Source: Candidatus Moraniibacteriota bacterium (GTDB lineage: Bacteria; Patescibacteriota; Minisyncoccia; Moranbacterales; UBA1568). From it: a stretch of 29,894 nt of DNA. The DNA lies in the NCBI GenBank assembly GCA_040006815.1, contig JBDTWF010000010.1, positions 1 to 29,894 of the forward strand. The letters are read 5' to 3'. Below, piece after piece: positions 22,595 to 26,722 of this stretch. The position numbers were made by a program, and so were the translations under genes. Within the stretch, counting starts at the first letter, position 1. Every line of letters begins with the position of its first letter. A model generated the notes under the pieces. The model was not told where the DNA came from and did no database searches. It saw only the letters and a list, made by a program, of their open reading frames with translations.

Positions 22595-23734
22595 TTATTT
22601 TTTCTCTTTCGTAATCCAGCTTTGGATAAGGCGTTCAGCGGAAGCCAGATCCATTCCTGAGAGCGTTCCCTCGAGCGTGTCTCCGAGAAGCTGGCCTTCT
22701 GGGAAGAGCGCCTGGATCTTCTCAAGCTCATCTTGTGTCGTCGTCTTGAGGAAGAGATGGAGGCTCTCTTGGTTTTCCTTGAAGAGGAGGACGAAGACGC
22801 TTGCGCCTGTAAAACTTCCTCGGAGCTTGTCGAGGGCGAGGTGAAGATCCTCCATCTTGGTGCGTGATTGGATGAGGTCCTCAATCGTAACTGGAGCCCA
22901 GATGAGCTTCTCAGCTTCTTCGTAGTGGACATTTCCCATGATGCGTCCCCAGAGCTTGAGGAGATTGAGAGGCTGGGTCTTATAGAGATTCTTTACGATC
23001 TTCTGTTGATCCGCGCCCTTTTCCATGAGACGCGAAGCGATTTCGAGCGCGCGGGGAGTCGTGTTCTTTTTCTGAAAGGATTCGGTGGCCGAAATGATGC
23101 CGGTGAGGAGCGCTTCGGCGACTGGTCCAGTGAGGAGCTCCTTCCCAACTTTTTCGAGAAGCGATGCCGCGATCTCCGATGACGAAGAGGCAGTCACCTC
23201 GACGAGATTCAGCTGGCCATACTGTTCGTTGGCAGACTGGAAGTCAATGTTGACGATAGGGACTTCATAGAAAATGTCCGGATTATTCTCATACATTTTC
23301 CCGAGACTCTCTTTGTCTCGAGCCGAAATCGTGATGACCAGATCAAATTTGTACTTGGCGAGGATGAACGAGAAATCCCGAGGATCGATGGTGCCGTGCT
23401 CGGGCGTGAGATGGATGCGGAGCTCCTTGTCGAAGCGCTCGGTACGCACATTGAGGATGGCATTATGTTCCGTATTGAAGGAAAGGACGAAATCTCGAGC
23501 GCCAGAAATAGCAGTCTCAAAATTCTTGGGGACCTGGAGAAAAGAGAGCTCTTCCTTTTTCTCAGAAAAATGATCGCACCCGACGGTCGGGGACTTTCCG
23601 AGCTCTTCCATGAAGAGGCCAATGGCAAAGCTCGTGGCCAAGGCGTCATGTGTCGGATAGGGAGGAATGAGGATAAGCGGATGCTTGGCCGGCTTGACGA
23701 GCTCAAGGAATTGCTCTTCTTTCGAGAGGGACAT
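22595..23734 (-). CDS. DHH/NrnA-family-like protein with degenerate catalytic motifs
   Basis: Family scaffold (LTGIISATESFQKKNTT, GAD, LLKLWGR, NEQYGQLNLV) is present, but DxD reads THD and DHH reads DFQ. Start set at ATG 23734. Confidence 0.7.
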   Translation of the reverse strand: MSLSKEEQFLELVKPAKHPLILIPPYPTHDALATSFAIGLFMEELGKSPTVGCDHFSEKKEELSFLQVPKNFETAISGARDFVLSFNTEHNAILNVRTERFDKELRIHLTPEHGTIDPRDFSFILAKYKFDLVITISARDKESLGKMYENNPDIFYEVPIVNIDFQSANEQYGQLNLVEVTASSSSEIAASLLEKVGKELLTGPVAEALLTGIISATESFQKKNTTPRALEIASRLMEKGADQQKIVKNLYKTQPLNLLKLWGRIMGNVHYEEAEKLIWAPVTIEDLIQSRTKMEDLHLALDKLRGSFTGASVFVLLFKENQESLHLFLKTTTQDELEKIQALFPEGQLLGDTLEGTLSGMDLASAERLIQSWITKEKK

Positions 23735-23845
23735 AAAGTCTGTTGGATGGCAAAAGTAAGAGTTCAGCCTATCAGAGGAGCGCCGGAGCGTCAAATCCCC
23801 AGGTGATTTCAGAAAATGGGAGTTTCGGCTAATATAAAGGAAAAT

Positions 23846-24286
23846 ATGCCAGACTCAATTCTCTCTCACTCCGCTGAGGAAACCCGCGCTTTTGGTTCTT
23901 CCTTGGTAGCCTCTCTCAGGCCCGGGACCCTCGTTACTTTCGAGGGAGAATTGGGTGCTGGAAAGACCACGCTTATCCAGGGAATACTCGAGGGACTCAG
24001 GGCAGAGCGACCCTATGTCAGCCCCACCTTTGTCCTCATGAAGCAGTACGATCTCAAGGCGCCTAGCCCGACCGGCATCCGGCGTGTGTACCACGCGGAC
24101 GCGTATCGAGTCGGGGAAAAGGATTTCAAAAAGCTTGGTTTTGATGAATGGTGTGCGGATCCTGAAGGAGCGGTTCTCCTTGAGTGGCCAGAACGCATCG
24201 CCTCTATCCTTCCTGAGAAAAAAATCTCAGTTACGCTCCGTTCCCTTTCCGAAACCGAAAGAGAAATCCTTGTGGAGACAAAATAA
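23846..24286 (+). CDS. tsaE: tRNA threonylcarbamoyladenosine biosynthesis ATPase TsaE
   Basis: GELGAGKTT, SPTF, HADAYR, EWPE; AAGGA SD before ATG 23846. Confidence 0.93.
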   Translation: MPDSILSHSAEETRAFGSSLVASLRPGTLVTFEGELGAGKTTLIQGILEGLRAERPYVSPTFVLMKQYDLKAPSPTGIRRVYHADAYRVGEKDFKKLGFDEWCADPEGAVLLEWPERIASILPEKKISVTLRSLSETEREILVETK

Positions 24287-24310
24287 AAAACAGCCCCACG
24301 AACGGAGCTG
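24281..24310 (-). terminator. Intrinsic terminator ending the leftward accessory operon
   Basis: Minus strand CAGCTCC-GTTCGT-GGGGCTG-TTTTTTATTT. Confidence 0.75.
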
Positions 24311-24322
24311 CCTTTCTTAAAC

Positions 24323-24368
24323 CATTTCCTCTCCAGAATTTCCAATGGCTTCGAATCTCTGGAAGGGG
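24323..24368 (-). repeat. Repeated hairpin element, copy X
   Basis: Plus strand CATTTCCTCTCCAGAA...ATCTCTGGAAGGGG; homologous to 25244-25290. Confidence 0.6.
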
Positions 24369-24414
24369 CTCAAGCGCTGCACGAGGGCAAACGCTTGAGC
24401 GAGTGGGTGGCTTT

Positions 24415-24807
24415 CTAGACCGGAGAGATGAGCGGTCTGGTTTTCACCAAAACCTGTTCGATCACCTCGTAGTGCCCGAAACCGAAGACATCGCGGCCAT
24501 GGGCGTCCTGCGACGTCACGACGACTCGTCCATCAGTCCCCCGAGCAAATTCTGCCCGCAGGATGAGCAGATTGCCGAACTCGCGTTTGGCGGCGGTGAG
24601 CTTGGCGAGGACAGGAACCGGTGCGACGACTTCAATCGCCACAACGTCCCCATATTTCTCCAAAAGCCCCGCGACTGCCTTGACCGGGTCGTCGCTGTAC
24701 GGAACGTCATCGTCCACAATCTTTAGGTCGTTTCCGAATGCTTTCCGAAGAGCCTCGATTCTCGACGGGTCTGCCGGGTGGCGGGTAATGCGAACGATTG
24801 TGGCCAT
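24415..24807 (-). CDS. Hypothetical 130-aa Rossmann-like protein (N-terminal TRH motif)
   Basis: Strong AAGGAG SD and normal protein composition: ITRHP...EALRKAFG...VVAPVP...FGFGHYEVIEQV. Confidence 0.75.
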   Translation of the reverse strand: MATIVRITRHPADPSRIEALRKAFGNDLKIVDDDVPYSDDPVKAVAGLLEKYGDVVAIEVVAPVPVLAKLTAAKREFGNLLILRAEFARGTDGRVVVTSQDAHGRDVFGFGHYEVIEQVLVKTRPLISPV

Positions 24808-24873
24808 TTTTTCTCCTTACCCCAGATCCCCGAGGTGCGGGTTGGCAGAATGCCAATTTCACAAAGAACTCTT
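24808..24873 (-). repeat. Repeated structured leader, copy B
   Basis: Minus strand AAGAGTTCTTT-GTGAAATT-GGCATTCTGCC-AACCC...GGGG-TAAGGAGAAAAA-ATG; homologous to 25642-25711. Confidence 0.75.
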
Positions 24874-24941
24874 GAAGCTCCTTGGATGAAAGAGACTCAA
24901 GAGTGCGCAGGAAGAGAAGAATTCTTCTTTTCCTGCATGGG

Positions 24942-25211
24942 TTATGAAACGAATTCCGACGCCGGGCGCACCTTCTCCTTTTCCCCAGGTTTTTTCACGA
25001 AGATGATGCAGCGGGCCACATGGGTCCGCAGGCAGTCATCGCAAATAAGGAAGAAGAGTTCGATCGTCGGTGCTGTGCCGAAGCTCAGGTTGGGATCGAA
25101 GGCCGTCGAACCGTAATTCCCGTACGACGAGCACATGACGCCCCCGTTCGGCTGGAATGAGTTGATCGGCTGCAATTCTTTGTCACAGCAAAAACAGAAA
25201 AGTTTTTTCAT
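24942..25211 (-). CDS. Hypothetical 89-aa Cys-rich protein (possible Zn finger)
   Basis: CFCC near the N-terminus, QPNGG, GNYGSTAFD, ICDDCL; co-oriented with its neighbours. Confidence 0.65.
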   Translation of the reverse strand: MKKLFCFCCDKELQPINSFQPNGGVMCSSYGNYGSTAFDPNLSFGTAPTIELFFLICDDCLRTHVARCIIFVKKPGEKEKVRPASEFVS

Positions 25212-25243
25212 GGCTGATCTCGTTGGTTGAAAAGAACTCGGGA

Positions 25244-25290
25244 CATTTCCCTTTCAGAAGTTTCTTACTGAAAAAATCTCTGAAAGGGGG
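25244..25290 (-). repeat. Repeated hairpin element, copy Y
   Basis: Plus strand CATTTCCCTTTCAGAA...ATCTCTGAAAGGGG; perfect 10-bp stem CCCTTTCAGA/TCTGAAAGGG. Confidence 0.6.
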
Positions 25291-25425
25291 GAGAAGGCAT
25301 GCGTTGCATACTTCTCCAAACTTTGAGTCTTTTTTTCAGGTGTGGCTCGGAACCTGTCTCATCTACACGCGGACGAGAAGCGCGAAGGAGTTTATCGTCA
25401 GCCTCGCGACGGGTCCAGAGCTACT

Positions 25426-25641
25426 TCAAGACTTCAAGAAGTAGATGAACGCCCCTACGAACAGCACTTCGGTTATAACAACACCGATGAGCACGGCCTG
25501 GATGGTCTTGGCGACCAGAGCCACACCACCTTCCGCAGTGCGTATCGCTTCGGCACGATCACCGGACATATACTGCAATCCGGCAATCACACCGACCACG
25601 ACAGCAACGAAAAGGGCCGGGACAAAGATGAGCTTGAGCAT
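25426..25641 (-). CDS. Hypothetical 71-aa two-helix membrane protein
   Basis: AGGAG SD, two hydrophobic helices; first gene after the leftward promoter. Confidence 0.7.
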   Translation of the reverse strand: MLKLIFVPALFVAVVVGVIAGLQYMSGDRAEAIRTAEGGVALVAKTIQAVLIGVVITEVLFVGAFIYFLKS

Positions 25642-25711
25642 TTCTTTCTCCTAACCCGATACCCTCGGGCGAGTGGGTTGGCAATATGCCGATTACTTTG
25701 AAAGAACTCTT
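25642..25711 (-). repeat. Repeated structured leader, copy A
   Basis: Minus strand AAGAGTTCTTT-CAAAGTAATC-GGCATATTGCC-AACCC...GGG-TTAGGAGAAAGAA-ATG. Confidence 0.75.
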
Positions 25712-25749
25712 TTCAAGTCTTGAAGAAACGCTTCTTAACTCGAAGGCCT

Positions 25750-25778
25750 AGTATAGTATTTATTTAACTTTATGTCAA
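25750..25778 (-). promoter_or_regulatory. Near-consensus promoter for the accessory operon
   Basis: Minus strand TTGACA-17 nt-TATACT. Confidence 0.8.
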
Positions 25779-25790
25779 TAGTATGTGACT
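25773..25790. promoter_or_regulatory. Putative operator 1 (TGTCA-N8-TGACT)
   Basis: Inverted repeat overlapping the -35 of the leftward promoter; same spacing as operator 2. Confidence 0.55.
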
Positions 25791-25844
25791 GTTTTTCAAT
25801 GAAATGCCTTTTTAAAAATGAAATTATGGCGTAACATAAGCAAA

Positions 25845-25870
25845 AATTTGTCATATAAATTTGACAAATT
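25845..25870. promoter_or_regulatory. Putative operator 2 (AATTTGTCA-N8-TGACAAATT)
   Basis: Perfect 9-bp inverted repeat overlapping the -35 of the TrmB-like gene promoter. Confidence 0.7.
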
Positions 25871-25888
25871 AATGAAAAGTAGTATCAT
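25861..25888 (+). promoter_or_regulatory. Promoter for the TrmB-like gene (leaderless candidate)
   Basis: TTGACA-16 nt-TATCAT, ending 6 nt before ATG 25895; no SD. Confidence 0.65.
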
Positions 25889-25894
25889 AGAAAC

Positions 25895-26722
25895 ATGTAT
25901 AATGAGCAACTAGAACAATTTGGTCTCTCAAAGGCGCAGGCGCAGGTCTATATGTATCTCCTGGAACATGGAGGTCAAAAGGCCGGAGAAATTGCACGTG
26001 GGGTAACGATCAAACGCGGATTGGTGTATAAGGCTCTCAAAGAACTTGAGAGCATGACTTTAATTGAGCGACGAGATGAACCGAATAAGCCAGATATCTT
26101 TTTGGCACGCCACCCTGAAATGCTTCGCAATCATATCGAAGAACGACTGCGACGGGCCAAGGAAGCGGAGGTTCTTTTCACAAGCTTCGCGCCAGCGCTT
26201 GGGTCAGCGTTTAATTTGATATCAGGAAAACCAGGAATTCGTGTTCTTGAAGGGTTTGACGGATTCAAGACGCTCTATAAAGATATTATTGCCGAAGGAA
26301 AGTCTATAAAGCTTATCCGCTCATCTTATGATCGGGAAAATCCAGAAATAGCGAAGTTTATTGATAAACAAATCCATGAGCAGATCCGGCATGAGATAAA
26401 TGTTAAGCTCCTGACGCATGAGACACCCAATGCGGCGCAGTTTGCACTTTGGTCTGATGACGATCGTTTGGTAACGCGGCGTATTGTGACGGACCCAAAC
26501 TTTCTTCTTCCGGCGCAGTTCGTTCTTTATGGTAATAAGGTGGGTATTACTGACTTCGAGACCACATTTATTACTACTATCATTGAGAACATCGCCATCA
26601 GGAAATCATTTGATATCATGTTTGATTATATGTGGCGGGCGGCCAAAGCGGGGCATGACAAACTCCTAGCTCAAGCCGAAAAAGATCAGAATGAAAAAAA
26701 AGGCTATAGTAAGGCTAAGTAA
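25895..26722 (+). CDS. TrmB-family transcriptional regulator
   Basis: N-terminal GLSKAQAQVYMYLL...AGEIARGVTIKRGLVYKALKEL winged HTH, a coiled coil, PGIRVLEGFDG, and a C-terminal effector domain (LYGNKV, FDYMW). Confidence 0.85.
   Translation: MYNEQLEQFGLSKAQAQVYMYLLEHGGQKAGEIARGVTIKRGLVYKALKELESMTLIERRDEPNKPDIFLARHPEMLRNHIEERLRRAKEAEVLFTSFAPALGSAFNLISGKPGIRVLEGFDGFKTLYKDIIAEGKSIKLIRSSYDRENPEIAKFIDKQIHEQIRHEINVKLLTHETPNAAQFALWSDDDRLVTRRIVTDPNFLLPAQFVLYGNKVGITDFETTFITTIIENIAIRKSFDIMFDYMWRAAKAGHDKLLAQAEKDQNEKKGYSKAK

Follow-up and report, generated by a model that had tools for sequence, protein, structure and literature searches.

Structured RNA between small, variable genes has been described in prophages, where hammerhead ribozymes flank variable genes and processing of the transcript into single-gene messenger RNAs (mRNAs) has been proposed (Perreault et al. 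2011; PMC3088659). The RNase III sites of the phage T7 early region and the plastid intercistronic expression element (Zhou et al. 2007; PMC2230500) are likewise repeated intercistronic structures that lead to stable, translatable single-gene mRNAs. Here we analyse an accessory operon on the minus strand of a 29,894-nucleotide stretch of DNA (the window; contig JBDTWF010000010.1) from a Candidatus Moraniibacteriota bacterium, a member of the Patescibacteria or candidate phyla radiation (CPR). Three small cargo genes are embedded there in non-coding modules, namely the L-leader, motif Z and a tandem hairpin, P1-P2, which are joined in relatives by type III hammerheads. These modules are conserved, covarying, strand-specific and associated with a gene of the TrmB family, and the cargo between them is shuffled.

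The locus resembles the prophage clusters in having structured RNA between small variable genes, in the hammerheads of related loci and in the proposal of single-gene mRNA processing. It differs from them in that the spacers hold mostly P1-P2, Z and L-leader modules with a short box, in that the window has no hammerhead, and in that the loci are chromosomal, lie between housekeeping genes and are mostly paired with TrmB. With the T7 sites and the plastid element it shares repeated intercistronic structures and, as a working model, their outcome; it has no sequence or structural homology to either, its modules travel with exchangeable cargo, and cleavage is what we infer here. Integron arrays have in common with it one-way small orphan genes, structured repeats, a single upstream promoter, a divergent gene and exchangeable cargo. 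CUP repeats of plasmid leading regions are also repeated non-coding sequences upstream of unrelated accessory genes, but they carry promoters and operators and act as DNA, whereas here a single promoter was detected and the repeats are transcribed, structured and covarying as RNA. The put RNA of phage HK022 consists of two stem-loops about one nucleotide apart, in one copy downstream of the promoter; the tandem hairpins here are 0–3 nucleotides (nt) apart, but there are several copies per operon and none is promoter-proximal. Finally, the boxB-boxA signals of rrn leaders and lambda nut and the non-rRNA boxA sites (PMC5725501) share with the locus a G(U/C)UCUUU core that lies 3' of a hairpin and at most 60 nt from a start codon, as well as NusB. 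In full-text searches of the literature we found neither these RNA motifs nor any TrmB-paired array of Patescibacteria described. As detailed below, the locus departs from integrons and from boxA in defining features. We class the array as putative intercistronic RNA punctuation of accessory genes, a kind that is known, with RNA modules that are new.

Our preferred explanation, to which we give a probability of about 50%, is that the locus belongs to a family of TrmB/TrmBL2-paired cassette operons in one Patescibacteria lineage, with modules acting on the sense transcript by RNA-level punctuation, in which they would cut, cap and standardise the mRNA of each cistron. Punctuation is favoured because of the sense-strand specificity and covariation of the modules, the hammerheads in the same spacers, the prophage precedent, a related locus (L041) with a hairpin unit and a hammerhead in tandem, and the RNase III gene encoded in the organism's own genome.

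Conserved RNA modules of the operon

On the minus strand the parts follow in the order promoter, leader A, 71-amino-acid (aa) gene, spacer with element Y, 89-aa gene, leader B, 130-aa gene, element X and terminator. A hairpin that is a near-perfect palindrome without a U tract (24936–24907; inverted repeat, 93% complementary) stands between the 89-aa gene and leader B. The original prediction had listed these parts, and the open reading frame (ORF) list, the promoter and terminator scan and the inverted repeats placed every one of them where it had been put. Its inventory of the spacers was real but incomplete, as it lacked the hairpin P1 before X and Y, the box before all three genes, and motif Z.

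Leader A (25642–25745, minus strand; minimum free energy (MFE) fold z −2.3) is the 5' untranslated region of the 71-aa gene and starts a few bases 3' of the operon promoter; leader B (24808–24905, minus strand; MFE fold z −2.9) precedes the 130-aa gene. Both are of L-type, with a hairpin H1, the box, hairpins H2 and H3, and a Shine–Dalgarno sequence (SD) in this order. By approximate hand counting from the sequence, these lie in leader A at ~25744–25712, 25707–25701 (GUUCUUU), 25690–25680, 25669–25655 and ~25652–25648, and in leader B at ~24904–24868, 24869–24863, 24855–24843, 24835–24820 and 24818–24813. The mean column identity of the two leaders is 81% (MAFFT), and their local alignment score of 46 compares with 15.2 ± 2.5 in 1000 dinucleotide shuffles (maximum 27; z 12.4) and with a maximum of 25 in 3000 random windows of the genome. 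No further copy was found in the organism's own genome (828,697 bases, 98% complete) by BLAST or nhmmer. Homologues of the part from box to SD were found by nhmmer in the related loci L052 (twice), L049, L047, L017 (before the 130-aa gene), L038 and L008, and the exact H3–SD string occurs in three further relatives, with no match for the reversed control. In H2, inspection of the aligned sequences showed that the two strands have changed in a complementary manner; H3 has a conserved sequence and almost no covariation.

Each of the elements X and Y forms a hairpin, P2, that comes second in a tandem; the first, a GC-rich hairpin named P1, lies 0–3 nt upstream of it. Unit Y lies at 25234–25324 on the minus strand (P1 25317–25290, P2 25288–25249, also seen in the MFE fold; 44.9 bits and a genome-wide E of 1e-6 with our covariance model, R1). 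Unit X at 24314–24397 on the same strand (P1 ~24400–24368, P2 24366–24328; R1 39.1 bits, genome E 2e-5; fold z −4.0) is terminal, with neither box nor gene after it. The two elements fold alike, with a compensatory U-A to C-G change, and their local score is 25 against 14.7 ± 2.5 in shuffles (z 4.1; maximum 27), a similarity that is weak taken alone, since at least one of 1000 shuffles scored better. The ending GGAAATG that X and Y had been said to share is present in the window; it is particular to it and is not conserved in relatives. BLAST, nhmmer and R1 detected no other copies of X or Y in the own genome.

Among 27 hand-collected units, P2 was part of the MFE fold in every case and P1 in all but three. 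In their MAFFT alignment 85% of the P2 cells were paired, against 70% with shuffled columns and 39–64% with slid partners, and 12 of 17 pairs showed compensatory changes. As variable loop lengths allowed RNAalifold to recover the structures from MAFFT alignments only in part, per-sequence folds and explicit pair counts were used instead. R1 identified 41 units in 24 related loci, every one on the operon strand, and the model-fitted alignment of these units had 85% of cells paired, compensatory changes in 20 of 24 pairs and covariation in all seven P1 pairs. G.U pairs outnumbered A.C pairs on the sense strand by 158 to 44, which argues for folding of this strand, most simply as RNA. Conservation of both sequence and pairing is found in the lower stem of P2 (CUUUA with UAGAG, or CCUUUC with GAAAGG), and the P1/P2 junction also holds conserved nucleotides. 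P2 has about 17 pairs, including a bulge, with loops and an upper stem of variable length. No Rfam 15 family reached its gathering score anywhere in the window, and in the region 24200–25950 the matches at E up to 10 were at chance level.

The similarity of the leaders to each other is thus far above that of shuffled and genomic controls. We give almost no credence to chance resemblance or to a recent, functionless local duplication: each element has two copies in the own genome and the X/Y pair alone reaches only z 4.1, but covarying modules occur in dozens of loci in different genera of at least four families. Further copies, which had been suggested as a check of the prediction, were absent from the own genome; conserved and covarying ones were present in relatives.

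Motif Z (25351–25409, minus strand) consists of an A-rich stretch, a C/U-rich stretch, a short hairpin and then GUGUAG. A regular expression was too strict for it, finding one copy, and an nhmmer profile of seven copies was used instead. This profile gave 14 matches in related loci, 14 of 14 on the operon strand, and in the own genome the window copy alone. Motif Z abuts P1 in L004 and L040, and often does so among the copies. Its C/U-rich stretch holds CCUCC-like letters resembling an anti-SD, which, judged by these letters, could pair with an SD.

Type III hammerheads were found on the operon strand in six related loci (L004, L008, L013, L014, L020 and L041). Six of the matches, with intact cores, score 42.9–48.0 bits (E 1e-7 to 3e-6), just under the gathering score of 48.5 (RF00008); the remaining matches scored 23–31 bits. 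In L004, L013 and L020 the hammerhead is directly followed by a box of the same kind as after P2, and in L041 a P1-P2 unit, a hammerhead and a gene follow one another. A 148-aa cargo protein with an RNA polymerase alpha C-terminal domain (L008:5857–6303; PF03118, E 7e-9) is encoded just 3' of a copy of motif Z and a weak hammerhead match (23.4 bits).

The genomic niche that P1-P2 has in common with hammerheads raises the idea that P1-P2, either by itself or together with Z or the box, could be a self-cleaving ribozyme of a new kind in the hammerhead's role. Association with hammerheads led to the discovery of the pistol, hatchet and twister-sister ribozymes, and the conserved nucleotides of P1-P2, together with its lack of an Rfam 15 match, would suit such a candidate. 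However, the unit is essentially two plain hairpins, with no pseudoknot or conserved internal loop evident in alignments (no dedicated test was made), the lengths of loop and upper stem vary freely, and a unit can adjoin a hammerhead, as in L041. We regard a new ribozyme as highly improbable.

The box, G(U/C)UCUUU, precedes all three genes of the window, at 25707–25701, 25237–25231 and 24869–24863 on the minus strand; the GUUCUUU before the 89-aa gene (motif scan) is 20 nt 5' of the start codon. In relatives the box trails P2 by 1–12 nt, follows a hammerhead immediately or stands 3' of a plain promoter-near hairpin, and it precedes SD and start codon by 15–60 nt. The forms observed after units there are GUUCUUU, GCUCUUU and, in one locus, GUUCCUU. 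As the bare heptamer is frequent in the own genome (243 copies against 94 expected), the box is informative by context only.

In its core the box fits GYTCTTTAANA, the boxA consensus of Baniulyte et al. 2017 (PMC5725501), and CAA or AAA often comes directly 3' of it. This opens the alternative of processive antitermination, in which the box would be a boxA for NusB-S10 with a boxB-like hairpin, or P1-P2 would act on the polymerase like HK022 put or Bacillus EAR, with read-through of the array hairpins. A hairpin always precedes the box, as one does in rrn leaders, the own genome encodes NusB, the gap of 0–3 nt between P1 and P2 is like that of the put stems, and the own 16S leader has a hairpin and then a U-rich stretch that matches the box region of the 89-aa gene at 12 of 17 positions by hand count. 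However, G(U/C)UCUUU is absent from the own 16S leader, from three 16S leaders of genomes with homologues of the 130-aa gene and from six 23S leaders of relatives, all of which show instead hairpins followed by U/G-rich runs. Positions 8–11 of the window boxes (CAAA, TCAA and GTGA) do not fit AANA, and in relatives they are mostly UCAA, GAAA or UAAU. Rho, against which antitermination is usually directed, was not found in the 98% complete genome, the promoter-proximal position has no P1-P2, and up to five units stand within 1.9 kb (L041), which a processive signal would not need. Unlike boxA, the box is repeated for each gene. We consider antitermination unlikely. On account of the rRNA leaders we do not equate the motif with boxA and use the neutral name "box".

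In the own genome the genes for NusB and RNase III are neighbours with the same orientation (G000, contig C27:8190–9243). Read by eye, a 12-codon upstream ORF (25208–25246, minus strand) opens in the GGAAATG at the end of Y and crosses the box, and its stop codon overlaps the 89-aa start as ATGA; translational coupling to the 89-aa gene is possible. The same ATG after X opens merely a 2-codon frame.

Regulator pairing and exchange of cargo

About 30 loci with homologues of the 130-aa protein (p130) were fetched for comparison. The spacers in these loci are of unusual length and have short conserved blocks in common with the window. The window's own locus was found in a single sequencing run, a soil metagenome that is probably its source sample. 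R1 also revealed P1-P2 units in 16 of 100 related genomes (E up to 1e-3), belonging to eight genera and four families, often with two or three units per locus on one strand. Within 1.5 kb of these units none of the window's four proteins was encoded in any of the 16 genomes. All ten ORFs tested beside units (seven in relatives, three in p130 loci) had no Pfam family. A loose P2 pattern occurred in at least 116 stretches of viral contigs, and none of 80 fetched viral loci matched R1 at E up to 0.01; with PHROGs empty for the three cargo proteins as well, a viral origin was left unsupported.

The units are accompanied by a regulator gene. A divergent upstream gene of the TrmB family, 0.2–3.7 kb away, was present in seven of seven unit-bearing loci checked in five genomes, one of the seven matches lying below the Pfam cut-off. 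Among the p130 loci, a divergent TrmB gene is found in the window, L004, L006, L009/L039, L014–L017 and L040, and one on the same strand in L008, L011 and L041. Several unit-bearing genomes hold two or more TrmB-paired modules, and one (G081) at least three, so that some lineages seem to have several copies of the platform. The relatives G024, G086 and G081, with genomes of ~1 Mb, have 4–10 TrmB-family matches each.

In the window the regulator is a 275-aa protein encoded at 25895–26722 on the plus strand (PF01978, E 2.8e-13). Its family profile aligns with residues 19–262 of TrmBL2 (PDB 5box), near full length (E 2e-8), and a structure model (pLDDT 86.6) shows an N-terminal winged helix, a coiled coil (helix residues 75–109) and a C-terminal alpha/beta domain, the architecture of the TrmB family. 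From this alignment and the predicted domains, the divergent gene is taken to encode a transcription factor, not a recombinase. A promoter-like site of the gene lies at 25861–25888 on the plus strand (consensus scan). Its −35 box is overlapped by a 12-nt inverted repeat, AATTTGTCATAT / ATTTGACAAATT, at 25845–25870, and direct repeats are present at 25786–25823 in the divergent intergenic region; going by the repeats themselves, both are candidate operators of the TrmB-like protein.

The same gene can be preceded by different modules. The 71-aa gene is rare; its homologues in two contigs (72–74% identity) and in L008 (54%) follow P1-P2 and the box, whereas the window has an L-leader at this place. 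Upstream of p130 we found the L-leader in the window, H2–H3 in L017, Z with P1-P2 and box in L004 and L040, P1-P2 in L008 and L015, a hammerhead in L014, and a different conserved leader of ~130 nt in L006 and L038. The last two leaders (L006:4860–4990 and L038:1495–1625) are nearly identical, with p130s that are each 67–76% identical to the window's; by its sequence this leader may be a further structured RNA or riboswitch-like element. Conversely, the same modules can hold different genes. L004 and L040 share ~80% identity across TrmB and p130, which resumes at Z and the terminal unit; in between, from the p130 stop codon to the conserved Z/P1-P2, their cargo is unrelated. Cargo is exchanged between conserved modules.

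The modular platform with exchanged cargo that the original prediction had put forward agrees with these replacements before the 71-aa gene and within L004 and L040. Because gene content is not fixed (p130 in none of 60 related genomes, P1-P2 in 16 of 100 beside unrelated ORFs), the modules are conserved, and leader similarity exceeds that of shuffles, its view of conserved non-coding parts and exchanged cargo is supported. It had also drawn the repeating unit as leader, gene, hairpin and X/Y element. Consistent with this, arrays begin with a hairpin and box but without P1-P2 (window, L006) and often close on a unit with no following gene (X, L004b/L040b, L006); on the other hand, the box and SD that come right after P1-P2 are those of the following gene, which would agree with the reverse assignment. 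The proposed boundaries are plausible rather than proven.

An array of small orphan genes in one orientation, parted by structured repeats and with a gene divergent from its promoter, also suggests site-specific insertion of cassettes, with P1-P2 as an attC-like DNA recombination site. The array-closing repeat, the replacement of a single cassette between the orthologous L004 and L040, and the greater likeness of units within a locus (57%) than between loci (43%) all fit this reading. Nevertheless, the divergent gene is TrmBL2-like along its whole length, no integrase lies between positions 22.6 and 29.9 kb of the window, and the sole integrase-family genes near related loci are XerC/D-like and 2–3.5 kb off. 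Unlike in integrons, GTTRRRY/RYYYAAC cores are missing; the box reads GTTCTTT and departs from GTTRRRY. The G.U excess favours folding of the sense strand, not of the bottom strand that folds in attC, and the hammerheads of the same spacers act on RNA. Recombination at P1-P2 is therefore very unlikely in our assessment.

The modules could instead be sites of a sequence-specific RNA-binding protein, of the host or encoded in the cargo (for instance p130), that would jointly set translation or stability of the cistrons without cleavage. In the lower stem of P2 not only the pairing but also the sequence is conserved, and the 7-nt box is nearly invariant after unrelated upstream structures; both are typical of recognition by a protein. 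No candidate protein co-occurs with the modules, however; the 60 relatives without p130 include ten of the 16 unit-bearing genomes, and the hammerheads point to cleavage. We hold this explanation to be quite unlikely.

Proposed punctuation of the transcript

For RNA punctuation we propose the following sequence of events. The TrmB-like protein would control the single promoter of the operon, and the polycistronic RNA would come apart between its cistrons: a hammerhead, where there is one, would cleave itself. To our knowledge, self-cleavage is the sole activity of hammerhead ribozymes. Elsewhere, a host endonuclease could cut in the single-stranded, U-rich box beside P2, or RNase III in P2. 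Stable hairpins would cap and thereby stabilise the ends of the fragments, and each cargo gene would gain the same kind of translation-initiation leader whatever its neighbours, which would insulate its translation. Recombination inside the conserved modules would provide the route by which cargo is swapped.

Several points weigh against this proposal. The window itself has no hammerhead, with no match even at E up to 10, and P2, with ~17 pairs and bulged, is short for a classical RNase III site. The punctuation model does not account for the conservation of the box. Units and hammerheads may stand side by side and so need not share one job, and P1-P2 may belong either to the upstream cistron, at its 3' end, or to the downstream cistron, at its 5' end. 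As to the statistics, the alignment of 41 units was fitted to the model and thus leans towards the modelled structure, and kinship among the sequences inflates the shuffle statistics. A more far-reaching version, which we think rather unlikely, has P1-P2 with Z and the box as the recognition and cleavage site of an undescribed RNA-processing system or as a new ribozyme class. The arrays would then be a CPR-specific, RNA-punctuated counterpart of integrons for acquiring and expressing orphan accessory genes, possibly for host interaction or anti-defence.

Patescibacteria have tiny genomes full of orphan genes, and their regulation and RNA processing are little known. The locus looks like an undescribed natural plug-in expression platform: the scaffold recurs and is portable, its cargo can be exchanged, and it comes with a regulator of its own. 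P1-P2, Z and the L-leader make at least three structured RNA families outside Rfam 15, hammerhead ribozymes gain a defined bacterial chromosomal context, and the modules offer testable mRNA-processing sites in a lineage with almost none known. In synthetic biology, ribozymes and hairpins are set in front of genes as insulators; the modules are similar to these and, if they work in this way, could be used as parts. The cargo amounts to a list of candidate accessory functions, including, in one locus, a CARF-like protein beside a gene of what we take to be the AcrIII-1 family.

Cargo proteins, promoter and flanking genes

The first cargo gene (25426–25641, minus strand) encodes the 71-aa hydrophobic protein, which on its composition is probably a membrane protein. 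It is separated by a spacer of 214 nt from the second (24942–25211, minus strand), whose 89-aa Cys-rich product has CxxC-type motifs and merely three weak homologues among 5.8 billion proteins. The third gene (24415–24807, minus strand) encodes p130, with 38 homologues at 52–100% identity in metagenomes. None of the three proteins has a Pfam family above cut-off or a PHROGs match.

The AlphaFold2 model of p130 (pLDDT 92.8) has a Rossmann-like fold. The best Foldseek matches in the PDB are the CARF-containing Csm6 and Cam1, at E 1.8e-3 and worse, and VIA-align gave Z 5.5–6.3 to many Rossmann-like domains, with weak likeness to CARF, SAVED and Argonaute MID. Of the look-alike clusters in the ESM Atlas, the greater part is viral or has PF27247 MJ1673. 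In one related locus (L039:4648–4962) a STIV_B116-like gene (PF08960), which is presumably of the AcrIII-1 ring-nuclease family, directly follows p130. Fold and neighbour give a hint, and no more, of a possible link to (cyclic-)nucleotide signalling or anti-defence.

Only one promoter was detected for the whole operon, a sigma-70-like TTGACA-17-TATACT at 25750–25778 on the minus strand (consensus scan, 11 of 12 matches). An intrinsic terminator at 24285–24316 on the same strand, with a 14-pair stem followed by a T run, ends it. Pfam matches for the flanking tsaE (PF02367, E 8e-34) and polA (PF00476, E 6e-148) and for the divergent TrmB-family gene agree with the neighbourhood that had been predicted. 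A 399-aa ORF adjoining tsaE (22595–23794, minus strand) matched no Pfam family at E up to 0.001.

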